Assembly (NCBI GenBank): GCA_964520655.1
Contig: CAZFNI010000007.1
Span: 6,398 to 70,397 of the forward strand
Reading direction: 5' to 3'
Length of the DNA: 64,000 bases
DNA from: an uncultured Planctomycetales bacterium
Lineage (GTDB): Bacteria > Omnitrophota > Gorgyraeia > Zapsychrales > Fredricksoniimonadaceae
Under the pieces are notes generated by a model, which saw only the letters and a program-made list of their open reading frames with translations, did not search any database and had not been told where the DNA came from. Of this stretch, positions 1 to 19,788 are shown one piece after another; the stretch's first letter is position 1, and every line of letters begins with the position of its first letter. The position numbers and the translations under genes are program-made.

Positions 1-361
1 ATATTCCACCCGCATGATTATAGGTGAAGAAGAAATCCTGACGGTAGGTCAAAAACCATAAGCCTCCCAGAAAAGCAGCCGCAGGCGAGAACAGGCGCGC
101 AAGGCAAAGGAAGATCCCTAAGCCGGCGCCGATATTCAGGATGATCTGTCCCAAAAGAATGCTGGGGATGTGCACCCCGAAGAGTTTGAACATCAGCCCG
201 TAATAGTAGGGCATGAGCGGTCCATAGACCCACCAGAAATCTTTGTAGGGCATTTCTCCGCGTAAGACAGCCGCGGCCGCATACAGGTCCCGGCCATGGT
301 CCCCCTGGGCAATGAAACTTTGGAAATTATGGTATGGCCAGCAGATGATGACGCCGGCCAT
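1..361 (-). CDS. Partial CDS (N-terminal ~120 aa; continues beyond window start) of a Family-A-like polytopic membrane protein, a putative GT-C glycosyltransferase. Start codon is the complement of 359..361.
   Basis: Manual minus-strand translation: MAGVIICWPYHNFQSFIAQGDHGRDLYAAAAVLRGEMPYKDFWWVYGPLMPYYYGLMFKLFGVHIPSILLGQIILNIGAGLG... This shares the D-x-G-R-[ED]-[LV]-Y ... YKD[LF] ... G-x-L-x-P-Y-[WY]-x-x-L-[LM]-F-K-[IL]-F-G signature of the + strand paralogs at 4930, 6761, 8576 and 12740. It is absent from the ORF track because there is no in-window stop. Confidence 0.55.
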   Translation of the reverse strand, partial: MAGVIICWPYHNFQSFIAQGDHGRDLYAAAAVLRGEMPYKDFWWVYGPLMPYYYGLMFKLFGVHIPSILLGQIILNIGAGLGIFLCLARLFSPAAAFLGGLWFLTYRQDFFFTYNHAGGI

Positions 362-532
362 AAAAGTGAGAGCGCAAAAAAAGATAAAACGGATGTTAGG
401 GGAGCTAAACACGGGGACATTTTAGTGGGAAAAGCCGGGGGCGTCAAGAAAGCGCTTGCAGAAATAATATGATCCAGCACTTGTTTTATTGTTGGACAGT
501 AGTAAACTTTAATTAGCATTTATAAAAAGATT

Positions 533-2980
533 ATGAAAACGCGCGCTGCCTACATAATGATGGTTATGCTGCTTCTGGGTGCGGGTTTCTTTTTTTGCCG
601 GCCGGCGATCGCGGATATTTATTACGCTGATCCTTCCGGCCATTTTGATGCCAATGCCATGGGGGTCGGCAATACCGTCATCGAAACGCCATCGGCAACA
701 TCAGGGGATTGTTCATCTGAAACATATAGTTCGTGCCGGGCCTCCGCTACTCCCGTAAAATTGAATGTTCCCGCTTTCAATATTGCTGTTGGAACGCAGT
801 GCAAATATATCACCGTTAATAATGGAAAAACAGTTTTTATCCCGGCGAGGACATCCAATGAATGGAAGTCGTTCATGGATTGGGCGGGAAATCCGCTCAG
901 GAATGGCGGGCAAGTGGACCTCCATGGATGCAGCGACGGGATGTGGACGGTGTGGAGCGGGTGTTCTCCGGCCTGCGGACCGCTTGCCGGGACGCAGAAC
1001 CGCCTGTGCGTGTACACCTCCAATTGGAAAGGCAATAATTGCAGCGCGCTGGATGCCTGGGGCAGCTCCAGGGCCTGCGCGGATTATTCCACCTGTGTTT
1101 GCGCGGCGAAAGACGCCAATTCGACATTTTGCGCCGGATCCGACAGCGGCTTTACGGCCATGCCGCCGCCCGTCACCTATGTTAATTTAGGTGGCTGCGA
1201 CGGGACAAAGTGCCAGGCGGCCTGTGTGGCGAATTATCACACCATCGCAGGCGGCTGCGCGATCAATACCTGCGCGCCCCTGACGGCTAATGCGACGGCA
1301 TGTAATGCCCTGACGCCTCCTGCGCATAATCAAAGCTATACGCTTGTCGCCGCTTGTTCGGCCAGCCCCTGTTTGGCCACCTGCAACAGCGGATATTTTA
1401 GAGACGGTGCGGTTTGTAATATTACCCCAGTTTGCGGCGCCAGCCCGAATACTTGCAGTGCCGGGGCACCTTCAGGTTATGACGGTCCCAAAGCCTGCGG
1501 CGGCAGTGTAGAGAATTGGACGTGCAGCAGCGGTTCGGCTTCGATCGCTTGTACCAGCACAACAGCGGCCTGTCCGTCTTGCGGCGGTTCTGCTAACACT
1601 TGCGCTGTGGGATCACCGACATCCTATAACGCGGATGTTTGCGGCGGGACATCAACATGGACATGCGTCAGTGGTGCATTTTCACTAGGGTGCAGCAAGG
1701 CCAATGCCGCGTGTCCGACCTGCGGCGGCAGCAATAATACTTGCGGCGTGGGATCACCGGCGGGGTATAGTGCCGGGGTGTGCGGCGGGTCCGCCACTTG
1801 GAATTGTAATAATGGAGGTTATACTCAAGCCTGCAGCAATGGGAATGCTGCCTGTCCGATATGCGGGGCCAGCAATAATACCTGCAACTTGGGAAGTCCG
1901 TCGGGATATAGTGCCGGCGTATGTGATGGCTCTTCCTCCTGGACGTGCAGTAACGGGGGGTATAATACTAGTTGCGGTAACCCGAATCCTGCCAATCCGA
2001 CCTGCGGGGGCAGCAATAATACCTGCGGTATAGGAACGCCGTCGGGATATGCTCTTGGTGCCTGCGGCGGGTCAGCGACATGGACATGTTCCAATGCAAC
2101 GTGTACTCCTAAAGCATGTAGCAATCCCAACCCTGCCGTCCCGACTTGCGGAGGCAGCTCGAATACATGTGGGATTGGAACCCCATCGGGGTATAGTGCA
2201 GGCGGATGCGGCGGGTCAGCTACATGGTCTTGTGATAATTCATGGTGTTCATCGCAGTCTTGCAGTAATCCGAACGCGGCTTGTCCCGTTTGCGGCGGCA
2301 GTGCCAATACCTGTTCGACAGGTTCACCATCGGGGTATGATGGTCCAAAAGCATGCGGAGGACTTACGGAGAATTGGACGTGCACAAACGGCGGTAGTTC
2401 AACGGGCTGTACGAAAGTCACAGGGGCCTGCGCGGGATGCACGTTTAGCGGAACCTGGGGAGGTGGATGCTCGGGTTCAACATCCGCGGCGCATGGTGCG
2501 ACGGGGACTGCGACGGATAGCACCGGATCGGAAACTGGTTGGATCTCGGCAACGTGCAACAATGGGACATGGACCGGAGTCTCTTCCTACTGCCAGGGGC
2601 CCTATACATTGGGGGCGTATGGCAGCTGTTCGCCATGCCGGACACGCAGTCTGGGTGGCGGATCGGAAGGGACACGCTCGCGCTCCGTAACATGCTCTTA
2701 TGACGCGTGCACGGGCGATAATACAAGCATCCAATGCTGTATTGCTTCTGATTGTCCGGTTACGTGCGGCGATGGGTCCTGCAATGGGGAAACGATCGCT
2801 GGTTGCCCAGCAGATTGCGGTTATTATTATTGCGGCGATGGCAGTTGCAATGCCCCGGAGAACCCCGGCAATTGCCTTGGCGATTGTCCGACAAGTTGTG
2901 GTGACGGATATTGCGTGGGTAGTGAAGTTTGTGATGGCTGTATCGCTGATTGCGGAGCATGTCCGCCTCCTCCAGATTAA
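533..2980 (+). CDS. Secreted Cys-rich multi-repeat protein (815 aa). It has an N-terminal signal peptide, a thrombospondin-type-1-like module, about 8 tandem ~45-aa Cys-rich repeats and a C-terminal CGDGxC Cys-rich tail.
   Basis: Hydrophobic N-terminus MMVMLLLGAGFFF. TSR-like segment WTVWSGCSPACGPLAGTQNRLCVY (W-x-x-WS-x-CS-x-x-CG ... R-x-C). Repeats of the form CP-x-CGGS-x-NTC-x-x-GSPSGY-x-x-G-x-CGGS-x-TW-x-C. N-terminal region is paralogous to the next gene (CKYITVNNGKT[VL]FIPA). Confidence 0.8.
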   Translation: MKTRAAYIMMVMLLLGAGFFFCRPAIADIYYADPSGHFDANAMGVGNTVIETPSATSGDCSSETYSSCRASATPVKLNVPAFNIAVGTQCKYITVNNGKTVFIPARTSNEWKSFMDWAGNPLRNGGQVDLHGCSDGMWTVWSGCSPACGPLAGTQNRLCVYTSNWKGNNCSALDAWGSSRACADYSTCVCAAKDANSTFCAGSDSGFTAMPPPVTYVNLGGCDGTKCQAACVANYHTIAGGCAINTCAPLTANATACNALTPPAHNQSYTLVAACSASPCLATCNSGYFRDGAVCNITPVCGASPNTCSAGAPSGYDGPKACGGSVENWTCSSGSASIACTSTTAACPSCGGSANTCAVGSPTSYNADVCGGTSTWTCVSGAFSLGCSKANAACPTCGGSNNTCGVGSPAGYSAGVCGGSATWNCNNGGYTQACSNGNAACPICGASNNTCNLGSPSGYSAGVCDGSSSWTCSNGGYNTSCGNPNPANPTCGGSNNTCGIGTPSGYALGACGGSATWTCSNATCTPKACSNPNPAVPTCGGSSNTCGIGTPSGYSAGGCGGSATWSCDNSWCSSQSCSNPNAACPVCGGSANTCSTGSPSGYDGPKACGGLTENWTCTNGGSSTGCTKVTGACAGCTFSGTWGGGCSGSTSAAHGATGTATDSTGSETGWISATCNNGTWTGVSSYCQGPYTLGAYGSCSPCRTRSLGGGSEGTRSRSVTCSYDACTGDNTSIQCCIASDCPVTCGDGSCNGETIAGCPADCGYYYCGDGSCNAPENPGNCLGDCPTSCGDGYCVGSEVCDGCIADCGACPPPPD
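1424..2453 (+). repeat. About 8 tandem, protein-level-conserved ~135-nt (45-aa) Cys-rich repeat units inside CDS 533..2980.
   Basis: The translated motif C-P-x-C-G-G-S-x-N-T-C-x-x-G-S-P-S-G-Y ... C-G-G-S-x-T-W-x-C recurs 8 times. The DNA copies have diverged, so this is not a recent duplication. Confidence 0.6.
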
Positions 2981-3138
2981 GGATTTTCAGTTATTAGATC
3001 CCATCAATTATTTTTGATAACCATGTTGTTCTGGGTAGAACGAATGTATGTCTCTGCTGTTCTGGTTAAAAAGGCGTGATCAATTTTTAAAGTTTATAAA
3101 AGAAAGCGTTTGCCTAAAAAGTGGATTTGAGCCTTGAT

Positions 3139-3159
3139 TTTAGACTAGGAAGGTCTAAA
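3139..3159 (+). promoter_or_regulatory. Inverted repeat TTTAGAC-N7-GTCTAAA immediately upstream of the RBS of the second Cys-rich gene. Possible operator or promoter-proximal element.
   Basis: Perfect 7-bp inverted repeat read directly from the sequence, in an AT-rich 185-nt intergenic region, 12-20 nt upstream of AGGAG. Confidence 0.3.
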
Positions 3160-3180
3160 CTTTAAGTGCTAGGAGAAAAA

Positions 3181-4887
3181 ATGACAATGCGCACAATCAC
3201 AGTTTTATTAGTCATGCTGTTTTTGAGCGCGGCTGTTTTTTTTGTCAAAGACCTTCAGGCAACAATTATCTACGGCGACGATTCTCTGAATGCCCATACA
3301 GTTGAAGGTGACAGTGAAACCACGAGTACAGCTCCCGGCGCCGATCCTGAGCAAAACCCGACAGGGGACTGCTCACAGAATCCCAATAAATCCTGCAAAG
3401 CTTCAGCGACCCCGACAAAATTAGATTCTTGGGGAACGCCGTGCAAGTACATCACGGTCAATAATGGCAAGACTTTATTTATCCCCGCCAAGAGCATGGG
3501 GGAATGGAATAATTTTCTTTCCTGGGCATCAAGCAATAATGGGGGGACGGTTTCCTTAAATGATTGTGTCGACGGAACATGGTCAGGGTGGGGCGCTTGT
3601 GTGCCTAGTACCTGCGGCTTCGGTACAGAAACGCGGACCTGTGTGTATGCAAGTCCCTATAAAGGGAAAGACTGTAGTTTGCTTGATGGGGGCAACAGCA
3701 CCCGGCCATGCACAGATTATACGCTATGCACCTGCGGTTCAAATGATGCGAATTCATCGTTCTGTGCCGGCCAGGACATTAATTTCACGGCCATGCCTCC
3801 GCCAACGACATATGTGGAAGCTGGCGGTTGCGACGCGTCAACCAAATGCCAGGCGCAGTGCGGGGCGGCATATCATGTGATACCGGGCGGCTGCGCGTTG
3901 ACAACATATACCGGGACATATCCGGCGTGTCCATCCGGATGCGGGTATATGGGAGGCCCTGTGGCACCTTTAACGTGCACTCGCGATCATGATGGGGCCT
4001 CTGTGGCGGGCGCTTTTTGTGGCAATCAAAGTTGTCCGACAACAGCGCCGTGCTGTGCTGGCGTCATTGATTGTTTCGGCGTGTGCAACGGTGGCGCGGT
4101 CACTGATTGTGCGGGGACTTGCGGCGGCAGTGCGGTCACCGATTGCAACGGTGTTTGCGGTGGCGGTGCGCAGATTGATGTTTGCGGTGTCTGCGGCGGT
4201 AGCGGGAATACCTGTCCATGCGTGGGGGCAACGCCGTGCGGCAGCCCGGGGGCGTGTTATGCGGCGGATGCATGCGGCGTGTGCGGCGGTCCAGGGCCGG
4301 GTTGTACACCAAGTGCTCCGGTATGCGGGGCGCCTAATGTCACGGTATGCAGTCAATGTACAGATGGCTGCGGGATCACCTATGTGGATTGTAATGGATG
4401 TCTTGCTGAACCAGAGCCATGTTCAGGAGCAACGCCGTGCGGCAGCCCGGGGGCATGCTATGCGGCTGATGCGTGCGGTGTGTGCGGAGGGGATGGTTCA
4501 TCATGCGCGCCACCGCCTTGTGTCTATGATTGCAATGGCGTTTGCAACGGCGGCGCGGTCGTGGATAACTGTGGAGTTTGTGGTGGACCTGGTGGCTGTG
4601 GGGGCTGCGCGGGGACAGTGGATTGCAATGGTGTGTGCAATGGCGGCGCGGTCGTGGATAACTGCGGAGTTTGCGGTGGACCTGGTGGCTGCGGGGGTTG
4701 CGCGGGTACAGTGGATTGCAATGGTGTTTGTAACGGCGGCGCGGTCGTAGATGCCTGCGGTCAGTGCGGTGGAGACGGCAGCAGCTGTTGTGCCGGAGGA
4801 TCATTTGATTGCAATGGTGTCTGCAACGGTGGGGCGGTCTTAGATAATTGCGGCGTCTGCGGCGGCTCAGGCGGATGTGGGTATTGA
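3181..4887 (+). CDS. Secreted Cys-rich repeat protein. It has a signal peptide, a TSR-like module and ADAMTS-like CGVCGG repeats. The ORF track starts it at a GTG (3166); the ATG at 3181 with an AGGAG RBS is preferred.
   Basis: MTMRTITVLLVMLFLSAAVFF signal peptide. WSGWGACVPSTCGFGTETRTCVY fits the TSR1 consensus. Repeated D-C-N-G-V-C-N-G-G-A-V-x-D-x-C-G-V-C-G-G-[PD]-G units. N-terminal domain is paralogous to gene 533..2980. Confidence 0.8.
   Translation: MTMRTITVLLVMLFLSAAVFFVKDLQATIIYGDDSLNAHTVEGDSETTSTAPGADPEQNPTGDCSQNPNKSCKASATPTKLDSWGTPCKYITVNNGKTLFIPAKSMGEWNNFLSWASSNNGGTVSLNDCVDGTWSGWGACVPSTCGFGTETRTCVYASPYKGKDCSLLDGGNSTRPCTDYTLCTCGSNDANSSFCAGQDINFTAMPPPTTYVEAGGCDASTKCQAQCGAAYHVIPGGCALTTYTGTYPACPSGCGYMGGPVAPLTCTRDHDGASVAGAFCGNQSCPTTAPCCAGVIDCFGVCNGGAVTDCAGTCGGSAVTDCNGVCGGGAQIDVCGVCGGSGNTCPCVGATPCGSPGACYAADACGVCGGPGPGCTPSAPVCGAPNVTVCSQCTDGCGITYVDCNGCLAEPEPCSGATPCGSPGACYAADACGVCGGDGSSCAPPPCVYDCNGVCNGGAVVDNCGVCGGPGGCGGCAGTVDCNGVCNGGAVVDNCGVCGGPGGCGGCAGTVDCNGVCNGGAVVDACGQCGGDGSSCCAGGSFDCNGVCNGGAVLDNCGVCGGSGGCGY
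4528..4881 (+). repeat. Tandem 93-nt in-frame repeats (about 3.8 copies; copies 1 and 2 are ~90% identical) encoding the DCNGVCNGGAVVDNCGVCGGPGGCGGCAGTV units.
   Basis: Units start at 4528, 4621, 4714 and about 4804. Copies 1-2 differ at only a few wobble positions. A separate ~65-nt direct repeat occurs at 4231..4295 and 4429..4493 (ATPCGSPGACYAADACGVCGG). Confidence 0.85.
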
Positions 4888-4929
4888 TATCTATTGAATC
4901 CATTTTAGCATTGATATCGCTTTAAATAT

Positions 4930-6756
4930 GTGCAGAATAAAAGCATGTCCGTGCGCAGAAAAGATGTCCTCATTGACGGCTTTTTCCTGTCGATCTTCCT
5001 TCTAATCTTCGTATCCTTCACCTGGGGCAAATGGATCCATCCGATCGTTGATTTCGGCCGAGAGGTTTATATCCCCTGGGCGATCGATCAGGGGGCCGTT
5101 CTCTACAAAGACCTGGCATTTCTTTTCGGTGCCTTGCCTCCTTACTGGAATGCTCTGCTATTTAAGATCTTTGGCGCGTCTTTGCAGACGATCCATGTTG
5201 TGGATGTGTTGGTAGTTTTTCTTTGCGCCGCATTGATCTATCGTTTTTTCTACTGCACCATGAACCGCTTGACAGCCTTCATGGTCACCCTCTCTTTTCT
5301 TATCCTGTTTGTCATGGATTTTTATTATTATGAATCCAATATGGCGTTTTTATCGCCATTCACGCACAGTTATTTTTACGCGTTCCTTTTTGTATTAGCG
5401 GCGGTCAATATCTGGCAATGTTTTCTCATGCGTCCAAGCAGGGCCTGGATATTTTTTTTAGGGATTTGCGTCGGCGGGGTTGTTGTATCACGGCTGGAGA
5501 TCGCGGCAGCATTCTTCGTGGCATTGTTGATCGGGTTTGCCTTTTATCTCCAGCGGTTAAAACCAGGATCACGGCAAACGCTGTATTATATGGGGTGTTT
5601 TATCGGGGGATTATTGACCCCGATCGCTTTGTTCTGGGCGTATTTCTTAATGTATTTACCGCCCTTACCCGCGTTTCTTTCCATCATTGGGTATAATCCT
5701 CAATGGCGTGAGGTAGGGGATCTGTATTTTTATCAATTCTTGGGAGGGTGGAACAACTGGGAGTTAAATGTGCTCTGGATGATCCGCAATTTGCTGGTTT
5801 ATGCGGCGCTGTATGCTTCATTTCATCTGATGCTGATCGCTCGTTTAAGCTTCAGTAAGAAAGAATGGCTGAAAGGTGTTTTCTCCTTCGCGATCTTTTG
5901 TATGGTCTACGGTGGGGTCGCGTTCTATATCAGTGATATATATGCCCGGGGTGTGTTTCGAGGCGCGATCCCGGTAGTGGCGGCGTTGATCGGGATCAGC
6001 CTGTTCAATATTTGCCAGAACAAAGAATGTGCCTGCCGCGACAGGCATTTGTCAATTGTGGTTTTGGCTGTCTTCGCGTTCTTGCTGATGTTCAAGGTCC
6101 CATTACAGTTGACCTTGCAGGACTATGCGCTGATCTACGGGATGTTTGGGGTGTTGATGTTCGTTGCCGGATGTGTGTATTATCTGCCGGAAAGATATCA
6201 ACAGTATCCAGGCGGGAGGAATTGGGTTGCGTTATTAGTTTGCGCGCTGCTGGTGCTGGTCATGGTGCGCGTCGGGATCGTTTCATGGGGAGGGTTATCC
6301 AGCAAGAAAACACTGGTTGGGAGAGGGGAAAATGTGCTATGGACGTTTGATAGTCCCGCGCCTTTTGGTTCCGGCGGCAGCGTGAAAAGTTTTCTGGACT
6401 GGTCCCGGGAACACTTTGCCCCTGAAGATACGTTTGTTGTTTTGCCGGAAGGAATAATGCTCAACTTTTTGACGGGGCATCGGATCACCGGCCGGCATGT
6501 CACATATATGCCGGCGGAAGTAACGACTTTTGGTGAAGCCAGCATGCTTCAAGAACTAAAAATGTCCCCGCCGGATTATGTGGTGGTTGTCGTCAAGCAG
6601 ACAAATGCCTATGGAGGACTGGACCTGGGCGTGAATTATTTAAATGATGTGTATAGATGGGTAAAGGATAACTATACCGTAGTATGGAGGTCGGGGAGCA
6701 AGAAGAAAGATAGTTTCCTGATGTCAGTGTATCAGAAAAAAGAGCGGAAGAGGTAG
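4930..6756 (+). CDS. Family A-1: polytopic membrane protein, putative GT-C-fold glycosyltransferase (ArnT/PMT-like first-loop motif), with a ~150-aa conserved C-terminal non-membrane domain.
   Basis: 608 aa with many hydrophobic helices. GKWIHPIVDFGREVYIPWAIDQGAVLYKDLAFLFGALPPYWNALLFKIFG resembles ArnT DE-x-RYAE ... YFEKP ... YW. C-terminal motif VVLPEGIMLNFLTGHRITGRHVTYMPAE is shared with the three paralogs. Confidence 0.75.
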   Translation: MQNKSMSVRRKDVLIDGFFLSIFLLIFVSFTWGKWIHPIVDFGREVYIPWAIDQGAVLYKDLAFLFGALPPYWNALLFKIFGASLQTIHVVDVLVVFLCAALIYRFFYCTMNRLTAFMVTLSFLILFVMDFYYYESNMAFLSPFTHSYFYAFLFVLAAVNIWQCFLMRPSRAWIFFLGICVGGVVVSRLEIAAAFFVALLIGFAFYLQRLKPGSRQTLYYMGCFIGGLLTPIALFWAYFLMYLPPLPAFLSIIGYNPQWREVGDLYFYQFLGGWNNWELNVLWMIRNLLVYAALYASFHLMLIARLSFSKKEWLKGVFSFAIFCMVYGGVAFYISDIYARGVFRGAIPVVAALIGISLFNICQNKECACRDRHLSIVVLAVFAFLLMFKVPLQLTLQDYALIYGMFGVLMFVAGCVYYLPERYQQYPGGRNWVALLVCALLVLVMVRVGIVSWGGLSSKKTLVGRGENVLWTFDSPAPFGSGGSVKSFLDWSREHFAPEDTFVVLPEGIMLNFLTGHRITGRHVTYMPAEVTTFGEASMLQELKMSPPDYVVVVVKQTNAYGGLDLGVNYLNDVYRWVKDNYTVVWRSGSKKKDSFLMSVYQKKERKR

Positions 6757-6760
6757 GCCC

Positions 6761-8566
6761 ATGTCGCCGCGAAAAACAGGATTGTTGTGGGATGCCGCGG
6801 TCCTTTTGACCGTAGCCGTTGTGTTTATCATATTGACTGGCGGAAAGTGGACCCATCCGGTCAATGATTTTGGCCGGGAAGTCTACATCCCCTGGGCGAT
6901 CGATCAGGGGGCGGTCCTTTATAAAGACCTGGCTTATCTTTTTGGTGCTTTGCCGCCCTGCTTAAATGCGCTGCTGTTTAAATTCTTTGGAGCTTCCTTA
7001 CAGACGATCCAACAATTTGATCTTTTGGTCGTCGCCCTGATGACCGCGTTGATCTACCGATTTTTCTATCTTGTCTGGTGCCGGTTATCCGCATTAGCTG
7101 CTGCGGCATCATTTTTAGTTCTTTTTGCTTTTGATTATCTGCCGTTTGGTTCAAACATGTATTATTTAAGCCCCTATTCTCACAGTTATTTCTATGCTGG
7201 ATTGTTTACCCTCGCGATCTTTAACACACTGGAGAAGTATTTTAAGGATCAGCGTAAGCGCTGGCTTTTATTGACAGGGGTTCTTTTAGGTGCGGCATTG
7301 TTGTCCCGTCTGGAGTTATTTATCATCATATTCATCGCATCGATGTTCGGGCTGGTGATCGATGCCTGTGCCAAGAACATGGCGCTGCGGGAAAGGTTCC
7401 GGAACTGGATGCTGGTGTTGGCGGGGGTTACGATCGCGGTCCTGCCGTTTTTGATATATTTCTCGATGCATATGCCCGTGTCAAAAGCGTTAATGTCGAT
7501 CGTCGGGTTTAATCCACAGTGGCAGCAGGTGTCTGGCATCTATTTGTATAGAAATCTGGCCGGGCTTATCCATGTTCCGATGAACCTGCAGATGTTGGGC
7601 ATCGTTCTGGGAGCATACGCGGCGTTGTATTTAGGATTGAACGCGCTTGGTCAGGCGTTTTTGCTGCGGCGCGCGGGGAGGGATCATTTTCAGGTATTTG
7701 TTCTGGGGGCGTATTTCTTTACGGTTTATGGGGCTGTGCTGTATGCGGTCAATCACGGCTGGGCGCATGAGATCTTTCGTGGAGCGGCCGTTTGTGTGAT
7801 CTTAGCCGGTATTCTGGCGTATAGAAAAATGCGTCAAGCGCAGGATGCGGATAGCCGCACCAGGGCGCTGCTGATGCTGATGTTCTGTCTTTTTGCCGGG
7901 CTGATGCTGTTTAAAGTGCCGCTGTCGATGAAATTATTCAATTACGCGCTTTTTTACGGCATGCCCGCGGGGCTTGTCACAGTTATCGTCTGGGTCAAGG
8001 TGGTCCCGCAGATCATGCAGGAACGCTATAAGTCGGGCGCTGTCAGTCAGCTGTTTGTCTTATTCTTGCTTGTCAGCGTCGGAATCCAGGTGTTTGGCGC
8101 GTCCATCCATGGGCTTGGGGCGAGACAAAAGAAAGTCGGTCTGGGTCCCAATGCGCTGTGGGCGTTGGACAGGACTTCACCGTGGGGCGCGGGTGATGAT
8201 GTGGATCTATTCCTGAAATGGGCCAAAGAAAATCTTAAGGCCGGCGAGCGCTTCGTGGTCCTGCCGGAAGGCATCATGCTGAACTTTTTAACGGGGCATA
8301 AGATCTCCGGCAGGCATTTAACGTTTATGCCGGCGGAGATGGTCACCTTTGGCGAGAAAAGCATGTTGGGGGCATTGACGGAAGATCCGCCGGAATACAT
8401 GGTGCTTGTCCATAAAAGCAATGCTGAATACGGAGGGATCGTCCTGGGGCAGAATTATGCGCTTGAGATAGTCGGTTGGTTGAAAGAACATTATCAGCGG
8501 GTATGGATCTCCCGGGAAAAAAGGCCGGGGAATTTTTCAATTGAGGTCTATCAACGAAGATCATGA
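6761..8566 (+). CDS. Family A-2 paralog (601 aa), putative GT-C membrane glycosyltransferase.
   Basis: Same N-terminal (GKWTHPVNDFGREVYIPWAIDQGAVLYKDLAYLFGALPP) and C-terminal (VVLPEGIMLNFLTGHKISGRHLTFMPAE) motifs as A-1. Confidence 0.75.
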   Translation: MSPRKTGLLWDAAVLLTVAVVFIILTGGKWTHPVNDFGREVYIPWAIDQGAVLYKDLAYLFGALPPCLNALLFKFFGASLQTIQQFDLLVVALMTALIYRFFYLVWCRLSALAAAASFLVLFAFDYLPFGSNMYYLSPYSHSYFYAGLFTLAIFNTLEKYFKDQRKRWLLLTGVLLGAALLSRLELFIIIFIASMFGLVIDACAKNMALRERFRNWMLVLAGVTIAVLPFLIYFSMHMPVSKALMSIVGFNPQWQQVSGIYLYRNLAGLIHVPMNLQMLGIVLGAYAALYLGLNALGQAFLLRRAGRDHFQVFVLGAYFFTVYGAVLYAVNHGWAHEIFRGAAVCVILAGILAYRKMRQAQDADSRTRALLMLMFCLFAGLMLFKVPLSMKLFNYALFYGMPAGLVTVIVWVKVVPQIMQERYKSGAVSQLFVLFLLVSVGIQVFGASIHGLGARQKKVGLGPNALWALDRTSPWGAGDDVDLFLKWAKENLKAGERFVVLPEGIMLNFLTGHKISGRHLTFMPAEMVTFGEKSMLGALTEDPPEYMVLVHKSNAEYGGIVLGQNYALEIVGWLKEHYQRVWISREKRPGNFSIEVYQRRS

Positions 8567-8575
8567 TAAAACGTA

Positions 8576-10387
8576 ATGGATAAGAATAAACGGGACATAG
8601 CCCTGGATGCGGCATTTATTCTGATGGTCTTGGGTGGATTTGTGGCCGTGACCTGGGGCCGGTGGGCTCATCCGATCATTGATTACGGCCGCGAGGTGTA
8701 TGTCCCCTGGCGTATCACCGCGGGGGAGGTCTTATATAAGGACCTGGCTTATCTGTTCGGTGCTTTTCCGCCCTATTGGAATGCGCTGCTTTTTAAAGTG
8801 TTCGGCCCATCGATCGCCACCTTGACGGGATTCAACACCCTCCTGGCCCTGGCGGATGTGTTCTTGGTGTACCGGTTCCTGCTTCTGTCCGCCGATCGCT
8901 TGACCGCGCTTTTGGGCGCGGCTGGTTTTTTATTGCTGGCGGTCTGCAATCTGCACATGGCCTACAATATGTATTATTTGGCCCCCTATTCGCATAATGC
9001 CGCGTATGCGGTCTTTTTTGTTTTGTGCGCGTTAAATGTGCTGCCGTCGTTGTTGCGGATATTGGAGCACAGGGCATTCTTTTTATTGGGGCTTTTTCTC
9101 GCTGGAGCGTTGTTATCGAGGCTGGAAATATTCCTGGCCGCGGCGCTGGCGATCTTTACGGCTTTAGGGTTGTATTTTTGGAAATATTCAGTACAAAAAA
9201 ATAAAGCGTTCGCTTATATCGGCACGGCGGTGGCAGGCATTTTCTTTCCGGTATTTGTGTTCTGGGTGTATTTTGTGGCACACTTGCCGCCCTTAGAAGC
9301 ACTTTTTTCTATTATAGGCTATAACCCTCAGTGGCGAGAGGTGGCCCAAACAACACTGTATGCCAAGCAATATGCGGCGTGGCGGGAGAATGTCACGCTG
9401 ATGGCCATGGCGTTGGGAGGCAGCATGTTATTGATCGTCGGCATTGAGATATGCTGCCGGGGCATGATGTTATGGCAAAAGAGCAAAGAGCGGTTGAAAG
9501 CACTGTTGATGTGCGGTCTTTCTGTGTTGTTATATACAGGGGTTCTATATGTTTGCACGGGTGAGAATGTGTATGATGTGTTTCGGGGGCAGATCATCCT
9601 TCAGATCGTATTGGTCGTTTTTTGTTATAAAAGATTCCAGTCTTCCACTGGATTGGAAGATAATATCAGAACATTGTGCCTTTGGGTGTTGTGTGCCTGG
9701 GGGCTTTTCATGCTGGGGAAGATCCCCTTAAAATGTGTTGTCCGGGGCAGCGGCTTGATCTACGGGATCCCGGCGATGCTGACAGCGGTCGTTCTTTTCG
9801 CGTATCTTCTGCCGCAGCGGGCGCAAAGGCTTTACGGCCAGGGGCGTATTGCGGCAATAGCGGCAGCGCTGCTGCTGACATTTTTGTTCTGTCGGGTGTT
9901 GGCGTCTTCGTTGAATAACTTGTCGCTGCGTTTGAAGGCTGTCGGTCAGGGAGCCAATGCATTGCGGACCATTGATTACCCATTGCCATTCGGGCTTGGG
10001 ACCGACATTGAGAAATTCCTTTCTTGGTCGCGGGATCATTTGGGGAACAATGACACCTATGTTGTCCTGCCCGAGGGGGTCATGCTCAATTTCCTGACCC
10101 GTCACCGGATAACGGGCCAGCACATCACCTTTATGCCGGCGGAACTGGCAACGTTCACGGAAGAACGTATGCTGGCAGGGTTGAAGGATGTTCCGCCTGA
10201 TTATGTGGTCATTGTGAATAAGGATAATACGGCTTACGGGGATATGGTTTTTGGGAAGAATTACGCGCCGCGTCTTTATCAGTGGGTCATGACGCGGTAT
10301 TCGCCGGTCTGGGATTCCAGGGTTATCCCCAACCGGTATGCAGGCATAACGGTCTTCAAACGTCAGGAAATACAGGGGCATGAATAG
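8576..10387 (+). CDS. Family A-3 paralog (603 aa), putative GT-C membrane glycosyltransferase.
   Basis: GRWAHPIIDYGREVYVPW ... YKDLAYLFGAFPPYWNALLFKVFG. C-terminal VVLPEGVMLNFLTRHRITGQHITFMPAE. Confidence 0.75.
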   Translation: MDKNKRDIALDAAFILMVLGGFVAVTWGRWAHPIIDYGREVYVPWRITAGEVLYKDLAYLFGAFPPYWNALLFKVFGPSIATLTGFNTLLALADVFLVYRFLLLSADRLTALLGAAGFLLLAVCNLHMAYNMYYLAPYSHNAAYAVFFVLCALNVLPSLLRILEHRAFFLLGLFLAGALLSRLEIFLAAALAIFTALGLYFWKYSVQKNKAFAYIGTAVAGIFFPVFVFWVYFVAHLPPLEALFSIIGYNPQWREVAQTTLYAKQYAAWRENVTLMAMALGGSMLLIVGIEICCRGMMLWQKSKERLKALLMCGLSVLLYTGVLYVCTGENVYDVFRGQIILQIVLVVFCYKRFQSSTGLEDNIRTLCLWVLCAWGLFMLGKIPLKCVVRGSGLIYGIPAMLTAVVLFAYLLPQRAQRLYGQGRIAAIAAALLLTFLFCRVLASSLNNLSLRLKAVGQGANALRTIDYPLPFGLGTDIEKFLSWSRDHLGNNDTYVVLPEGVMLNFLTRHRITGQHITFMPAELATFTEERMLAGLKDVPPDYVVIVNKDNTAYGDMVFGKNYAPRLYQWVMTRYSPVWDSRVIPNRYAGITVFKRQEIQGHE

Positions 10388-12743
10388 GAATTTAGTCACC
10401 GTCGGTGTCATTTCGTTTTCGGCCATCTTGTTCCAGATATGCGTCACGCGCATTCTGGCGGTGACCCTGTGGTATCATTTTGCTTTTCTGGTGATCTCGC
10501 TTTCGATGCTGGGGATGACGGCAGCCGCGATCGCCTGTTTTGTTTTTTGGCCGCGTGTCATAGAAACACAAAGCCGGCGGTATTTTATTATTTTTGCAGC
10601 CCTGTTCGCCTTGCTTGCGCCATTATCCGTTGCTGTTCATTTAAATATCAATTTTCAGGAAGTGGCGTTCAACACGGCCGGATTTTATGCGATCGCGATG
10701 CTCCAGCTGGTGTTTTTGGCGGCGGCGTTCTTCGCCGCAGGGATGGCGTTAAATATCATTTTGTTCAAAGAACAGGAACGGATCGGATTTGTCTATTTCT
10801 GTGATCTGATCGGCGCCGCGGCGGCAAGCCTTCTGGTCATGGCGCTGTTATATTGGGTCAGCCCTATCGCTGTTGTGTTTCTCATTTCATTTTTGTCCTT
10901 ATGGGCAGCCTATGTGCAGGCATCGCATCAGGGCTTACGCCTGGCGCTGCTTTTATCAGCGGGAGTGATGCTGGTATTATTCATCAACAATGACGCGTGG
11001 CATATCTTTAAGATCAGGGCCGTGAAAAGTTATGGGGAGAAAGCGTTCCAGGTGGAGGACAAACCTCTTTTGTTCGAGAAATGGTCGCCGTTCGCGCGTA
11101 CGACGGTGTACAGCCCGACCCGCCATGACAGCGGGACATTATCCATTGAGAATAATTCCGGCGCACCGGCGGCAATGTTCAAATATGACCCGATGCTTCC
11201 GCCAACCCAGCTGAGGACCAGGCTTTACGGTCTTCAGGAAATGGCTTTTGTCCTCAAGAAGAGCGATGAAGCCTTGATCATCGGCTCAGGCGGAGGGAGG
11301 AATTTGCTGGCAGCGTTGCTCTCGGGTCAGGGCCATATCACGGCGGTTGAGGTCAATCCGGTGACTGCGGAGATCGTTACAAAGGATTTTTCGGATTATA
11401 TCGGCCGCATCTTTGAGGATTCCCGCGTTACTTTTCATGTGCAGGAGGGGAGGAATTTCATTGCCCGTACCCAACAGTTGTACGATGTGATCAATATCTC
11501 CATGGTTGAGAGCTGGGGGAATCAGGCCGCGGCCAGCAATTCGTATATTTTTACCGAGAACACCTTGTACACCAGAGAAGCGGTCTGGGATTATGTGCGT
11601 CATTTAAACCCGCAGGGGATACTGAGCATCACCCGGTATGATGATTTTGATGAAGGCTTGCGTTTAGTGAACACGATGATCGACACGCTGCAGGAGAGAG
11701 GGGAAAAAGACCTTAAGGACCAGTTCGTCGTTGTGTTGGGCTACAAGTATCGGGGATCGGTGGGGCTAGCCAATGTCATGTACAAACGCGGCGGATTCAC
11801 CAGGGAAGATGTGGCCAGGATCAGGGATTTTACATCCCGTAACGGTTTTAAGATCATTTACGCGCCGTTCTTGCCGGAGGCAGCAATGAGCGCGCTTCCC
11901 CGGTCGGAATTTTACCGCAAGCTTATCCTCGGGAAAGACAGGAGGGATGATCTGGTGGCGCGGTATCCCCGGATCATCAGCCCATCCACGGACGACAAAC
12001 CATTTTTTTTCTACATGGACCGATTTAAGGATTCATTTGTGTTCAATGCCAATGAACATGCGGCCCGAAGACGCGCTATCCCGATATTGTATGGATTGTG
12101 TGCGGGGGTAGCGGTGCTTAGCCTGATCATGGTCTTTCTGCCGTTGTTAGTTTACCGCCGTACACGTTTAAGCACGCTGTTGCAATGCCGGGTGAATTTG
12201 CTTTATTTTGCAGCGCTGGGAACGGGGTTTATGTTCATTGAGTTATCCCTGATACAGCGACTGACTGTTTTTCTGGGGCATCCCATTTACGCCTTGATCG
12301 TGGTGTTGACCGCCTTGCTGTTAAGCAGCGCTATGGGGAGCTTCTTCTCAGGAAGGATCAAGCCTCTAATGAAAGAGAAGGTGCTTAAGGTTGTGCTGCT
12401 GGCGATCGCCCTCTGTGGCGTTCTTGTGGGGGGAATTATGTTCGATCACCTGGCGCGCTGGATGTATTTACAGCAGCCGCTGCGTGTCATCGTTGCTGTC
12501 GCGACCATCGTTCCTTTGGGGGCTATGCTGGGGATGTGTTTCCCGCTGGGTGTTCATTTGCTGCAGGAGAAGGACAGGCAGCTGATCGTATGGGCGTGGG
12601 GTATCAACGGGATATTTTCTGTCTTAGGATCGGTGCTGGCCATGGTGCTGGCACTGCATATGGGATTTAAAGCCGTGTTCTTGATCGGAGCGGCATGTTA
12701 TTGCGGGGCATGGTTGGCGGTCAAACGCATGGGGAATCAATGA
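10380..12743 (+). CDS. Spermidine-synthase-like (aminopropyl/methyl-transferase fold) domain flanked by N- and C-terminal multi-TM domains (787 aa).
   Basis: The central segment IIGSGGGRNLLAALLSGQGHITAVEVNPVTAEIV ... DVINISMVESWGNQAAASNSYIFTENTLYTREAV matches the spermine/spermidine synthase fold. Hydrophobic N- and C-terminal regions are consistent with the known fused spermidine-synthase-like membrane proteins. Confidence 0.65.
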   Translation: MNRNLVTVGVISFSAILFQICVTRILAVTLWYHFAFLVISLSMLGMTAAAIACFVFWPRVIETQSRRYFIIFAALFALLAPLSVAVHLNINFQEVAFNTAGFYAIAMLQLVFLAAAFFAAGMALNIILFKEQERIGFVYFCDLIGAAAASLLVMALLYWVSPIAVVFLISFLSLWAAYVQASHQGLRLALLLSAGVMLVLFINNDAWHIFKIRAVKSYGEKAFQVEDKPLLFEKWSPFARTTVYSPTRHDSGTLSIENNSGAPAAMFKYDPMLPPTQLRTRLYGLQEMAFVLKKSDEALIIGSGGGRNLLAALLSGQGHITAVEVNPVTAEIVTKDFSDYIGRIFEDSRVTFHVQEGRNFIARTQQLYDVINISMVESWGNQAAASNSYIFTENTLYTREAVWDYVRHLNPQGILSITRYDDFDEGLRLVNTMIDTLQERGEKDLKDQFVVVLGYKYRGSVGLANVMYKRGGFTREDVARIRDFTSRNGFKIIYAPFLPEAAMSALPRSEFYRKLILGKDRRDDLVARYPRIISPSTDDKPFFFYMDRFKDSFVFNANEHAARRRAIPILYGLCAGVAVLSLIMVFLPLLVYRRTRLSTLLQCRVNLLYFAALGTGFMFIELSLIQRLTVFLGHPIYALIVVLTALLLSSAMGSFFSGRIKPLMKEKVLKVVLLAIALCGVLVGGIMFDHLARWMYLQQPLRVIVAVATIVPLGAMLGMCFPLGVHLLQEKDRQLIVWAWGINGIFSVLGSVLAMVLALHMGFKAVFLIGAACYCGAWLAVKRMGNQ

Positions 12744-14566
12744 GATTAAACATGGCAAAGATCGACAGACGAGTTGTGCAAGATGTCATTGTGCTGATGA
12801 TCGTCATGATGTATTTCATCGCAAGGACATGGGGGAAATGGGCCCACCCGATCACGGATTTCGGACGGGAATTGTATATCCCTTGGCGCTTAAGCGAAGG
12901 GCAAATATTATACAGGGACATTGCCTATTTGTTTGGTGCATTTCCCCCCTATTGGAACGCGCTGATGTTCAAGCTGTTCTCCCCGTCGCTGGCCATGTTG
13001 ATAACGATCGACCTTGTGGCGGCTTGTTTATACACAGCATTGATCTACCGCTTTTTATATGTCACAACCAACCGGTCAACAGCATTCATGGGAAGTTTGG
13101 GTTTCATGATGGTGTTCGTCTGTAATTTTATGGGGTATAACATGTATTATCTAACCCCCTATTCTCACAGCAATTTTTATGCCGTTCTCTTTTCTTTGGC
13201 CGCAATGAACCTGTTCCATCTTCTTTCGCAACACTTTAAAAAAAGGATGGTATTCGCGATCGGCCTGTTATTAGGCGGGGTGCTCTTATCACGTCTAGAG
13301 ATATTCCTGACGATCATTATCCCTGTTATTGTTGGTATAGCGATGTTGGTGGATCGACGCGGCAGCAAGGCAGTGATCGCACGGAGTTATGCTGTATTTC
13401 TTTTAGGGCTTGTGATCCCCGTTATCTGTGCATGGGGTTATTTCTTGCAGTATTTCCCAGCGGCACAGGCGCTGCAGAACATCGTGGGATATAATCCCCA
13501 TTGGCAGAAAATATCGGGTGTCTATTTGTACGCAAAACAATATCTCGGCTGGGAAAGGAATGCCTCTCTAACGGCAAAGGCAATAGCCGCGGGCTTTATA
13601 TTTTATGGAGCCATTGATCTGTTGTGCCGGGGTATTCGCGGGGGTCTTGACAATAAAGGGGCATATCGGTTTGCGGGGATGATCTTGCCGGGTTTTTGTA
13701 TGTATGCCTTGATCGTTTATCTGTGTGTGACGCCTTATGTGTACGATTCTTTTCGGGGAGCGGCCATGGCGGCTGTCGTGCTGGCTGCAGCTCTTTTCCG
13801 TCGACTGAAAGGTGTTCCGTCCTTGCCGCAGAGTATTCCAGGTCTGATACCGCTGCTGGTGTGTTGTTTCTGGGCAGTCTTGATGTTGTTCAAGGTGCCG
13901 CTGATGATCACCTTCCGGGGATACGGGCTGGTCTATGGGCTGCCGGCATTTCTGATGGGGGTGGTCCTTTTTGTGTATTTTGTCCCACAGCAGATGCAGC
14001 GGAAATATGGTCAGGGACAGTTGTCGCGGCGACTGGTATCCGCGTTGCTGCTGTTGATATGCGTGATGATATATTCTTCTTCATTCAAAAATTTGTCATC
14101 GAGGAACAAGGCTGTTGGTTCTGGGAATAATATTGTTGTTTATCTGGACAAGAAGTCCTCTTACGGACTGGCGGAAGATATTGAGCGTTTTCTCCTCTGG
14201 GCCAAGGATCATTTGGGCCCCAGGGACACGTATGTTGTTCTTCCTGAGGGAGTAATGCTCAATTTTTTCACCAGGCATGCGATCACCGGTCCGCATGTCA
14301 GCTTTATGCCCGCGGAAATGGCCACGTATGGGCAAGAAGAACTGTTATTGTCGTTAGAACGTGATCCGCCGGACTATGTGCTCATTGTCCACAAAGATAA
14401 TCGCGTGTATCCCGGGATGATATTGGGTAGAAATTATGCGGTAAGCATTGTAGACTGGGTCAAAAGAAATTACCGTTCTGTCTGGGATTCGCGCGAGAAT
14501 AAAAAACGTTTTGTCGGGATCGAAGTGTTTCAACGCGAGGGGATAAATGATCAAGATCTTTATTAG
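12740..14566 (+). CDS. Family A-4 paralog, putative GT-C membrane glycosyltransferase. The ORF track starts at 12695; the ATG at 12740, overlapping the upstream stop as ATGA, is preferred.
   Basis: GKWAHPITDFGRELYIPWRLSEGQILYRDIAYLFGAFPPYWNALMFKLF. C-terminal VVLPEGVMLNFFTRHAITGPHVSFMPAE. The distance from the start to the GKW motif matches the paralogs. Confidence 0.7.
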   Translation: MRLNMAKIDRRVVQDVIVLMIVMMYFIARTWGKWAHPITDFGRELYIPWRLSEGQILYRDIAYLFGAFPPYWNALMFKLFSPSLAMLITIDLVAACLYTALIYRFLYVTTNRSTAFMGSLGFMMVFVCNFMGYNMYYLTPYSHSNFYAVLFSLAAMNLFHLLSQHFKKRMVFAIGLLLGGVLLSRLEIFLTIIIPVIVGIAMLVDRRGSKAVIARSYAVFLLGLVIPVICAWGYFLQYFPAAQALQNIVGYNPHWQKISGVYLYAKQYLGWERNASLTAKAIAAGFIFYGAIDLLCRGIRGGLDNKGAYRFAGMILPGFCMYALIVYLCVTPYVYDSFRGAAMAAVVLAAALFRRLKGVPSLPQSIPGLIPLLVCCFWAVLMLFKVPLMITFRGYGLVYGLPAFLMGVVLFVYFVPQQMQRKYGQGQLSRRLVSALLLLICVMIYSSSFKNLSSRNKAVGSGNNIVVYLDKKSSYGLAEDIERFLLWAKDHLGPRDTYVVLPEGVMLNFFTRHAITGPHVSFMPAEMATYGQEELLLSLERDPPDYVLIVHKDNRVYPGMILGRNYAVSIVDWVKRNYRSVWDSRENKKRFVGIEVFQREGINDQDLY

Positions 14567-16529
14567 GAGCATGTTTATCGCGTTGATCGCCGCATGTTTG
14601 ATCGGCATGTCCGACCTGATATTCATTTCTGTTTCCCCTAAAGCGTTTATCAGTTTCAGGAATATCACTGTTCTGGCCGGAGTTCCGGTCCTGGCGATGA
14701 ACTGGCTGCTGGTCTTTTTCGCAACGTTCATCCTTGTGTTCGTATGTTCTTGGCTGGGAGGCTATGTTGTCGCCGGGATCTTTTCTTTATGGACGATCTT
14801 TTATTTGATCAGTTGGGGGACATATTTAGTCGTTGGTGAGTTTCTTGGTTTCGAGGGGATCCGGTTTGTTTGGTATAACCTCAATGATATCCTCTGGATG
14901 ATGGGACAGATCTCTGCCTGGTATTGGGTGGCTTTGACCGTCCTGGTACTAACGCCGGTCGCTGGTTTTCTTTTGACCAACAGGTTTAGTCATTATTTCA
15001 AGAAGATCATCACCGCTCTTGAAGTGAGGCAAAGAGTAGTTGCTGGGATCGGTGTTCTGGTTTTATGCACGTTGATGGCGATCGCGTTTATTCTTTTTGC
15101 GTCGTTGACCCCCAAACAGAAAGCTGACTTAAGATTACGTGTTTCTCCCCAGGCGACATTGTTCTGGGACCGTCCGCAAAAAGAGATCCTTTTGGGACGC
15201 GCGCATGATCAAGAGCACTTAAGAACACATTACTCCCAGGTTATTGGATGGGAGGATTATCAGAAGATGCAGGTCAAGACCGTCAAGCCTGTTCCTGTGA
15301 TCGTCATAGTCATTGAGTCCATGTGCTGGGACGTTTTGAACAATGCGCAGGTGATGCCCAACACGTACGCTTTAAAACAGGATGGAGTGTATTTACGCGC
15401 GTATACGACCAGCAATCAATCCGATTATGCGTGGCCCGCGATATTCTCGTCACAATATCCCCTGCGGACCAGATATCATTATTATTATCCCAGAGAAAGC
15501 CGCTTCCCGCGCGTTACCATCTATGACGTATTAAAGCAACAGGGATTCGACACGGCTATCTATTCTGCCCAGAATGAGACCTGGGGGGGAATGTTCAATT
15601 ATTTGAATACCGGGTCTTTAGACATGTTCTATTATTCCGATGCCTCTCATGGGGAGGATTATATGTCCCACGAAGATTCCGGGTTCGCTGCCTATACGAA
15701 AAAGTTCAGATCCCCGGGGAAGATCGATGATGGAGTGGTGGTCGATGAGGCCATATCGTGGATCAAAGGAAGGCATCAGGATAAGTTCTTTCTTGGTCTT
15801 AATTTTCAGCGTTCGCATTTCCCCTATACCTGGCCCGACTCATTCCATCCCCCTGATCCGGGAGTAAAGCCAAGCGGCTGGGGATATTCACGCACTCTGG
15901 TCAAGGGTGTAAAGGCCAGGTATTTCAGTGCGTTGCGTTATACGGATGAACAGATCGGACGTTTTATTAATTTCTTAAAAGAGCAGGGGATCTATGAAAA
16001 GAGCATTATTGTATTGATGGGCGACCACGGAGAGGCCTTTTATGAACATGCTTCTCCGATCCATGGGAATGAACTCTTCAATGAAACTGCTTTGACCGGG
16101 TTGTTGATCAAGGGATCAAACGAGCGCATAACCGTCAAAAATTATAAGAATCCGGAACTTCTGGATGTTGCTCCGACGCTATCTTCAATGTTGGGATTGA
16201 CGATACATCCGGCTTTTCAGGGGGAATCACTAGTGGCCCCGTCTTCTTTTTCAAAACCAGTCTTCATCACGGTGCAGTCGGCTATCGCTAAACAGGATGC
16301 GATCGTCGCGGGCGGGTGGAAATTGATCCGGGATCTGCGTAATAACAGGACATCTCTTTTTGATCTTCGACGTGATCCTGGGGAAAGCAAGAATGTTTAT
16401 CAATCCAATCAGGTTCAAGGGCTGAAACTGTTGCTCCAGTTGCTGTATTGGCGCAAGAAGCAGTTAGAGTATTATTCAACACCGGACATGGCAAAAAAAT
16501 ATTATGCCCCCAAGTACTCGTCCCCATAA
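14547..16529 (+). CDS. Membrane-anchored sulfatase-family enzyme (alkaline-phosphatase superfamily), LtaS / phosphoglycerol- or phosphoethanolamine-transferase-like.
   Basis: About 5 N-terminal TM helices followed by a soluble domain with VIVIVIESMCWD and the signature LMGDHGEAF. The architecture matches LtaS/MdoB/EptA-type transferases. Confidence 0.65.
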   Translation: MIKIFIRSMFIALIAACLIGMSDLIFISVSPKAFISFRNITVLAGVPVLAMNWLLVFFATFILVFVCSWLGGYVVAGIFSLWTIFYLISWGTYLVVGEFLGFEGIRFVWYNLNDILWMMGQISAWYWVALTVLVLTPVAGFLLTNRFSHYFKKIITALEVRQRVVAGIGVLVLCTLMAIAFILFASLTPKQKADLRLRVSPQATLFWDRPQKEILLGRAHDQEHLRTHYSQVIGWEDYQKMQVKTVKPVPVIVIVIESMCWDVLNNAQVMPNTYALKQDGVYLRAYTTSNQSDYAWPAIFSSQYPLRTRYHYYYPRESRFPRVTIYDVLKQQGFDTAIYSAQNETWGGMFNYLNTGSLDMFYYSDASHGEDYMSHEDSGFAAYTKKFRSPGKIDDGVVVDEAISWIKGRHQDKFFLGLNFQRSHFPYTWPDSFHPPDPGVKPSGWGYSRTLVKGVKARYFSALRYTDEQIGRFINFLKEQGIYEKSIIVLMGDHGEAFYEHASPIHGNELFNETALTGLLIKGSNERITVKNYKNPELLDVAPTLSSMLGLTIHPAFQGESLVAPSSFSKPVFITVQSAIAKQDAIVAGGWKLIRDLRNNRTSLFDLRRDPGESKNVYQSNQVQGLKLLLQLLYWRKKQLEYYSTPDMAKKYYAPKYSSP

Positions 16530-17505: not shown

Positions 17506-17515
17506 TTTGGCTGAT

Positions 17516-19570: not shown

Positions 19571-19788
19571 TCCTAAAGATATTATTGCGCAATGCGCTGC
19601 TGTTCTTGATCGCGGCAGCCCTGCTCTCAAAAAGCGTTGATCGGCAGGAATGTTTTATCAAGCGCGGAAAATATTTATTAGGGATCGTTTATAACGGTTT
19701 TTTCCAGAATGAGCGCGACAAGATCGTGTACGAGGATTATTTAAAGCGGCATGGCAGCTCCCCTGAGATATTCCAAAAGGGGTTATAA
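19555..19788 (+). CDS. Small hypothetical protein (77 aa) with an N-terminal hydrophobic segment.
   Basis: ATG at 19555 overlaps the end of the upstream gene, and the CDS otherwise fills a 300-nt gap. MEKNMILKILLRNALLFLIAAALL. No recognisable domain. Confidence 0.3.
   Translation: MEKNMILKILLRNALLFLIAAALLSKSVDRQECFIKRGKYLLGIVYNGFFQNERDKIVYEDYLKRHGSSPEIFQKGL

Follow-up and report, generated by a model that had tools for sequence, protein, structure and literature searches.

An edge-truncated gene beside a glycan-assembly region probably encodes a GT-C-fold membrane enzyme of an unnamed family found throughout Omnitrophota

Membrane glycosyltransferases of the GT-C superfamily carry a catalytic acidic residue where the first loop helix begins, and every characterised GT-C enzyme, to our knowledge, uses a polyprenyl-phosphate-linked sugar donor and transfers the sugar on the periplasmic face. 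Among the bacterial members, ArnT adds L-Ara4N to lipid A, and PglB-type oligosaccharyltransferases N-glycosylate proteins. Enzymes of the ArnT/PMT_2 (GT83-like) type combine ~11-13 transmembrane helices with a small periplasmic C-terminal domain, and their acidic residue opens the first periplasmic loop. The STT3/PglB/AglB enzymes (GT66), of ~640-870 aa, join a membrane domain to a C-terminal globular domain that is periplasmic or lumenal, and oligosaccharyltransferases bear a WWDYG motif in this soluble domain. Some GT-C enzymes work in pairs: Pmt1-Pmt2 and EmbA-EmbB act as heteromers.

Here we examine a gene, which we call D1, that lies on the minus strand at the left edge of a 64,000-nucleotide stretch of DNA (hereafter, the window); its homologues are referred to collectively as the D family. 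Our reading, to which we give a probability of roughly 80%, is that D1 is a polytopic inner-membrane enzyme of the GT-C fold, encoded by the first gene of a two-gene unit and belonging to an Omnitrophota-wide family. The parts of the gene discussed below are these:

1..412, minus strand: 5' end of D1, codons 1-137 of 535, from translation; the remainder lies beyond the left edge of the window.
8273-9829 (from ATG), or to 9880 with GTG, minus strand, in the contig of the sister strain L001: D1 at full length, from translation of that contig.
422..424, minus strand: in-frame TAA, the upstream bound of the ORF; the frame is open from the ATG at 361 up to it.
410..412, minus strand: GTG, the proposed true start, at a position conserved in orthologues and the fourth codon past the TAA.
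359..361, minus strand: ATG used by the initial annotation and by public gene calls, probably the internal Met18; it gives 518 aa.
338..394, minus strand: predicted transmembrane helix 1 (TM1), IRFIFFCALTFMAGVIICW, residues 7-25 in GTG numbering, from hydropathy; it aligns with TM1 of the homologues.
287..304, minus strand: codons of G-D-H-G-R-D, at the start of the predicted first periplasmic-loop helix, from the sequence and the family alignment.

The minus strand of window positions 1-361 translates, on the reverse complement, as MAGVIICWPYHNFQSFIAQGDHGRDLYAAAAVLRGEMPYKDFWWVYGPLMPYYYGLMFKLFG..., a run of 120 stop-free codons, and the peptide given in the initial annotation matches this translation exactly. 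That annotation was also right that the listed minus-strand ORFs 18..233 and 193..519 are in the wrong frames (their translations are unrelated low-complexity peptides) and that the gene was missed because it runs off the window: the frame is open at the left edge, whereas the ORF lister needs both ends of an ORF in order to report it. Base composition in the D1 frame is coding-like, with a GC content of 0.64 at third positions versus 0.40 at second positions.

We read the DNA to the left of window position 1 from L001 (NCBI contig JAYRRC010000016.1, assembly GCA_041910255.1, 578,732 bp), which was found through an identically encoded 533-2980 protein and in which a window position x corresponds to x + 9468. 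Between the two there are 3 base differences in 1-361, none in 362-5066 and, beyond that, mosaic divergence of up to ~7%; L001 therefore represents a sister strain, not the same assembly. There D1 continues uninterrupted to its stop, over 518 codons from the ATG or 535 from the GTG. A 518-aa protein from another NCBI contig, P0001, is 97% identical, and its N-terminal 120 aa equal those of the window exactly, so that by sequence it is probably the window's own allele. An early stop upstream, or an end to the alignment with the proposed paralogs, would have spoken against the gene; no such stop occurs, and D1 can be aligned through to the C-terminus. D1 is thus a real, intact and ordinary gene truncated by the window edge and oriented divergently from its neighbours, as had been proposed.

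The mosaic pattern extends across the whole comparison of window 1-12980 with L001 9469-22448. The 3 mismatches in 1-5066 all fall within 70-92, and divergence is ~5.5% in 5067-6000, <1% in 6001-7000 and ~7% in 7001-12980, which suggests recombination within the region that holds the Family A genes described below.

Comparison with orthologues suggests that the gene does not start at 361. The family consensus has ~17 N-terminal residues more than the product of ATG 361, and orthologues have a start codon exactly 36 codons ahead of GDHGRD, with GTG in L004, L005 and L032 and with ATG in L003, L008, L022 and L024; in L024 this is the only possible start in the ORF. Counting the same distance in the window leads to GTG 412, 17 codons (51 bases) upstream of the ATG. 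In the family alignment the resulting N-terminal extension, MFSSPNIRFIFFCALTF, aligns with MFNSKKSTLICFFLLTV of the homologue P0002, and the GTG start gives MFSSPNIRFIFFCALTFMAGVIICWPY, which is like the MFNSKKSTLICFFLLTVLCGIVIHLPY of P0002 in length and character. It also provides TM1 with a full 19-residue segment (mean of 2.17 in a 19-residue Kyte-Doolittle window), of which a start at ATG 361 leaves ~8 hydrophobic residues. Because the start position is conserved in orthologues, the extension aligns and TM1 is restored, we prefer GTG 412 over ATG 361; from these sequence comparisons D1 most likely starts there and encodes 535 aa. Public gene calls probably begin it 17 codons too late, removing the first transmembrane helix.

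The revised start also shortens the region available for a divergent promoter, which the initial annotation had placed at 362..532:

413..532, between the strands: divergent intergenic region from D1 to the plus-strand gene 533-2980, AT-rich.
419..447, minus strand: sigma-70-like match TTGACG-17-TAAAAT facing D1, with 10/12 consensus matches.

GC content is 0.375 in 413-532 and 0.27 in 470-532, compared with 0.507 for the window. The region, with its span corrected to 413-532, is AT-rich and contains one sigma-70-like site on the minus strand; the number of such sites (2, versus 1.4 expected in shuffles) is not significant taken alone. A divergent promoter in 413-532 is plausible. An Rfam scan of window 1-1200 gave no match.

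Boxes resembling a -10 element are found at 419-424 (TAAAAT), 521-526 (TATAAA) and ~57496-57501 (TATAAT), ending 6 nt before GTG 412, 6 nt before ATG 533 and 7 nt before ATG 57509, respectively, and most gene starts in the window have no Shine-Dalgarno sequence. Leaderless mRNAs of D1, gene 533 and gene 57509 are thus possible. We mention the idea only in passing, as the layout does not recur at orthologous loci and promoter counts do not exceed those in shuffles.

The initial annotation identified the edge gene as a further paralog of four plus-strand proteins of the window, its Family A:

4930-6756, 6761-8566, 8576-10387 and 12695-14566, plus strand: the four Family A members, from paralog grouping by blastp.

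On this view D1 would be a fifth true Family A paralog, with its start at ATG 361, in one glycosyltransferase cluster that a shared divergent promoter at 362-532 would drive. Several observations fit this picture. When compared by blastp with the ORFs of the window, the 120-aa fragment matches exactly the four Family A proteins and no others, at 30-37% identity (E 6e-9 to 1e-6) and N-terminus to N-terminus. In both families the first loop bears the signature D-x-G-R-[DE]-x-Y ... G-x-x-x-Y-[KR]-D ... G-x-x-x-P, with D38, G40, R41, Y44, G52, Y56, G64 and P68 as invariant columns of the joint alignment. They also have the same architecture, in which an N-terminal polytopic domain is followed by a C-terminal alpha/beta domain, predicted to be periplasmic, with an 'ALP..' strand, and the model of Family A (pLDDT 91.1) likewise has the GT-C fold according to AlphaFold and Foldseek. 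The intergenic region is AT-rich, with its promoter-like site. Profile comparison by hhalign extends the homology from end to end, with a probability of 99.1% (E 4e-19) for the D family against the four window proteins and, when the Family A profile comprises 31 members, of 99.84% (E 2.5e-30, 508 columns).

The degree of similarity, however, is not that of a fifth member. The four Family A proteins (601-623 aa) are 37-44% identical to one another over their full length, whereas D1, at 535 aa, shows ~17-18% identity to them in the profile alignments. At full length, blastp aligns D1 with Family A over residues ~21-115 and 358-514 only, at 21-37% identity. D1 is 65-90 residues shorter than Family A and does not have the insertions that Family A carries in the central membrane part; it also probably does not begin at ATG 361, given the conserved start 17 codons upstream. 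The two families also differ in distribution and company. Orthologues of D1 are widespread in genomes with no Family A nearby, whereas a search with Family A gave 49 matches, which makes it rare compared with the D family; L003, the closest relative, has a D gene and no Family A block; and the conserved neighbours of Family A are sulfatase/LtaS-like and GT2 genes, those of the D family being others. We consider a fifth Family A paralog unlikely. On sequence comparison, the family of D1 is instead a distinct, phylum-wide sister family of Family A: the proposed homology and the shared signature are upheld, and membership in Family A is not.

The structural model argues for D1 as a GT-C enzyme. 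Modelled with AlphaFold2 from 32 family members (pLDDT 91.2, pTM 0.91), the protein has a dozen or so membrane helices and, after them, an alpha/beta domain of ~150 residues at the C-terminus; hydropathy indicates ~11-12 hydrophobic segments. Among PDB structures, the 28 best Foldseek matches are all GT-C enzymes, each with a probability of 1.0, and include STT3/PglB, ArnT, ALG12/ALG9, AftA, EmbA/B and PMT. Two features that mark the superfamily are found: in the model, the polytopic domain (~8-13 transmembrane helices in GT-C proteins) superposes on solved GT-C enzymes, and a conserved acidic residue lies in the first extracytoplasmic loop past TM1. All 32 family members carry the same residues G20 D21 H22 G23 R24; the D, G and R of GDHGRD, and then Y...G...Y...G...P, are invariant in Family A too. 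A helix of the model, residues 21-33, begins at the first Asp of this motif. The best-conserved parts of the D family are the first loop and the C-terminal domain predicted to be periplasmic, which contains the motifs ALPYD, PTRQLIFFDH and EPGWAWNHG.

Might D1 be orthologous to a bacterial GT-C enzyme that is already known, either ArnT or a PglB-type oligosaccharyltransferase? ArnT (5ezm) is the best structural match by size and TM-score (0.54/0.53, E 1e-5), the STT3/PglB/AglB enzymes have the lowest Foldseek E-values (4.5e-7 to 4e-5) and the same plan of membrane domain plus C-terminal globular domain, the C-terminal domain of D1 weakly resembles the globular domain of AglB, and some relatives of Family A have been automatically named 'Ara4N transferase-like'. 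D1 is similar to ArnT in size and layout, and residues 48-200 give a weak match to Pfam PMT_2 (PF13231), which scores 24.8 bits for the fragment and 24.4 for the full length, below the gathering score of 26.1, and which is seen at E<=0.1 in 10/32 family members. Against orthology, no NCBIfam model, whether ArnT, PglB or any other named one, matches D1, and a sequence-profile search of the PDB with the D family profile is empty even at E<=10. Relative to ArnT, D1 has no match at the sequence level and distinct motifs in the C-terminal domain; relative to STT3/PglB/AglB, it is much shorter and shows 10-15% identity, a TM-score of ~0.5 and an rmsd of >9 Å. Its sole WW-x-YG string, WWVYG, falls in the first loop at residues 43-47, whereas the C-terminal domain (residues 365-518 of P0001) holds no WWDYG. 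General Pfam scans of the larger window ORFs, together with the labels of genes upstream in L001, revealed no arn- or pgl-like gene. We therefore regard orthology to either system as very unlikely. For solved GT-C enzymes in general, TM-scores of ~0.5 with large rmsd pick out no single subfamily, and the nearest subfamily, and hence the type of donor and acceptor, cannot be called from them. Proteins of the YfhO-like type (Family B of the window, and 17507-19570) share both superfamily and locus with D1, but they are of 687-865 aa, match Pfam YfhO and have no pairwise similarity to it that blastp can detect.

That the membrane-glycosyltransferase cluster continues upstream of the window, another proposal of the initial annotation, is borne out by L001: the cluster extends by two membrane enzymes, D1 among them, and one putative surface protein. 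The second enzyme gene, D2, encodes a 543-aa paralog of D1 on the same strand, 37% identical, and its start overlaps the end of D1 by 8 nt. D2 likewise has no match in an NCBIfam scan. A gene for a 258-aa PEP-CTERM protein (TIGR02595, 18.1 bits, cut-off 16) follows 268 nt past D2, and beyond it come unrelated plus-strand genes. A paralog of the D2 type follows the D gene in roughly 15-20 of 79 related loci.

Tandem pairs of GT-C paralogs sometimes include a less active subunit, and D1 might accordingly have a GT-C-like fold without being a glycosyltransferase, as a non-catalytic partner of D2 or as a membrane protein of polymerase, ligase or scaffold type. We judge this highly improbable: D1 and D2 both retain every invariant residue of the family, DHGRD included, and conservation peaks in the first loop and the C-terminal domain, as it would for an active site. 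The gene overlap and the kept invariant residues are compatible with an enzymatic D1 that forms a heteromer with D2 or acts in sequence with it.

The D family is large and close to confined to one phylum. A search with it lists, at the least, more than 450 matches, all of them unnamed or 'hypothetical' proteins from Omnitrophica MAGs. Species-representative genomes contain 148 relatives, nearly all labelled Omnitrophota, and some relatives are labelled 'uncultured Planctomycetales' in third-party assemblies. Clustering at 50% identity gives 363, 1,314 and 4,890 clusters at E<=1e-30, 1e-10 and 1e-3, respectively, and the 363 at the strictest threshold are nearly all from Omnitrophota. We conclude that this unnamed GT-C family comes close to being part of the Omnitrophota core genome, near-universal in one or two copies. 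A search of the literature on Omnitrophota and glycosyltransferases found nothing on it.

We surveyed gene order at 79 loci related to the D gene, 65 of which have enough upstream DNA for a count of distances. In the window, two further elements are relevant:

51668-55578, plus strand: operon of CxxCxxCC, LPG_synthase_C, RNase T-type exonuclease, PabB-like and PabC-like genes, from Pfam.
533..51598, plus strand: variable block of ~51 kb from D1 to its usual divergent neighbour, from paralog families, Pfam and synteny.

Homologues of the CxxCxxCC operon occur in the same order and divergently from the D gene in 38/79 loci and are its commonest upstream neighbour; in 22/65, the D gene has a CxxCxxCC or LPG_synthase_C gene of the operon no more than 800 nt away. 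In 10-11 loci, the direct divergent neighbour is a homolog of 17507-19570, a membrane protein with a YfhO-C-terminal-like region. This homolog is immediately followed by the CxxCxxCC operon in L029, L033 and L042; in L003, L013, L016, L017, L034 and L072 an FkbM methyltransferase and GT-C genes of Family B or C lie behind it. In L003, the closest relative at 73% identity, the D gene directly adjoins the 17507 homolog, and everything corresponding to 533-17505, all of Family A included, is absent. Since the operon is the usual divergent neighbour elsewhere, the gap between D1 and the operon is a variable site, filled here by ~51 kb of glycan-assembly genes: Cys-rich secreted proteins, four Family A members, four of the YfhO-like Family B, five of Family C and more, with sulfatase-like, methyltransferase and oxidoreductase genes and, at the end, a minus-strand GT2 gene (50876-51598). 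The pairing of D1 with the plus-strand cluster is therefore lineage-specific, and most relatives have another divergent neighbour.

Several features of the block and its surroundings deserve mention in their own right. A sulfatase/LtaS/EptA-type gene (14547-16529, plus strand) directly follows a Family A gene, and the same is seen in the unrelated contig L082 (2802-4799, 44% identity); the pairing of a Family A GT-C protein with a phospho-substituent transferase may be conserved between the two. Genes for an FAD/NAD-binding oxidoreductase, a short-chain dehydrogenase and a GMC oxidoreductase (23082-24662, 24373-25452 and 27734-29065, plus strand) stand among the GT-C genes, a set that we take, by analogy, to resemble polyprenyl-phosphate sugar epimerisation of the DprE1/DprE2 type. 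Further along the plus strand, a 157-aa ORF (44850-45323) matches the N-terminus of Family C, the overlapping 594-aa ORF 45284-47068 matches the rest, and a 415-aa ORF (47061-48308) matches Family C in part; together they look like a split or decayed Family C paralog. HTTM-domain membrane proteins are encoded on both flanks of the region, at 2897-4249 (plus strand) in L001 and 56005-57462 (plus strand) in the window.

The first two genes of the block, 533-2980 and 3166-4887 (plus strand), encode Cys-rich proteins (11-13% Cys) with signal peptides and a common N-terminal region of 250 aa, in which a stretch with a WxxW motif, WSGWGACVPSTCGFGTETRTC, resembles a thrombospondin type 1 repeat; Pfam TSP1_spondin matches it with 17 bits (E 0.006), a score that falls far short of the gathering value of 41. 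The 533-2980 protein also has seven Cys-rich repeats of 47-48 aa. N-x-S/T sequons in these repeats were dropped as evidence of N-glycosylation, being inconsistent between repeats. The Cys-rich genes lie just upstream of Family A, and the top PDB match of the Family A model is the C-mannosyltransferase DPY19.

One could combine these features into a different account, in which D1-D2 is a phylum-specific heteromeric GT-C protein glycosyltransferase (OST/PMT/DPY19-like) that anchors a hypervariable surface-glycosylation island. Its substrates would, speculatively, include the Cys-rich WxxW proteins at 533-4887, with their thrombospondin-repeat-like stretch, along with the PEP-CTERM protein, and the stretch from the D gene to the CxxCxxCC operon would be a hotspot for the gain of GT-C cassettes, with 0 genes in most genomes and ~27 here. 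The account draws on the structural matches of D1 to OST and of Family A to DPY19 and on the weak TSP1 match. The hotspot pattern is indeed observed, but conserved synteny lends protein glycosylation no support: PEP-CTERM genes and the 533-2980 family are found at 0/79 D-family loci, and no homologues of the Cys-rich genes were found beside D-family or Family A genes elsewhere. We rejected the PEP-CTERM protein and the Cys-rich 533-4887 proteins as conserved partners on these counts (0/79 D-family loci, 0/5 Family A loci), and the account as a whole seems improbable.

Returning to D1 as a GT-C-fold enzyme of the inner membrane, we infer its donor and topology by analogy with characterised members: it would take a sugar from a polyprenyl-phosphate-linked membrane donor and pass it on at the periplasmic side. 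Donors of this kind could come from the GT2 enzyme at 50876-51598, which is of a type that makes polyprenyl-phosphate sugars, and from others like it. Within the invariant D-H-G-R-D, the Asp is the presumed catalytic or acceptor-activating residue, and the conserved 150-aa alpha/beta domain at the C-terminus, if periplasmic, may hold the acceptor. Neither the PEP-CTERM gene nor the plus-strand cluster is a conserved neighbour, so that genomic context says little about this acceptor; we favour an envelope glycan or lipid because nearly all of the phylum carries the D family, in one or two copies.

For annotation, the case of D1 shows how a real gene at a window edge can be missed for a purely mechanical reason. 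The gene marks one border of a site that carries anything from none to ~51 kb of membrane-glycosyltransferase genes in related genomes, and it belongs to a family with no representative in Pfam, NCBIfam or the PDB. The substrate of this family, if found, would inform on the cell envelope in a phylum of which almost nothing has been cultured.
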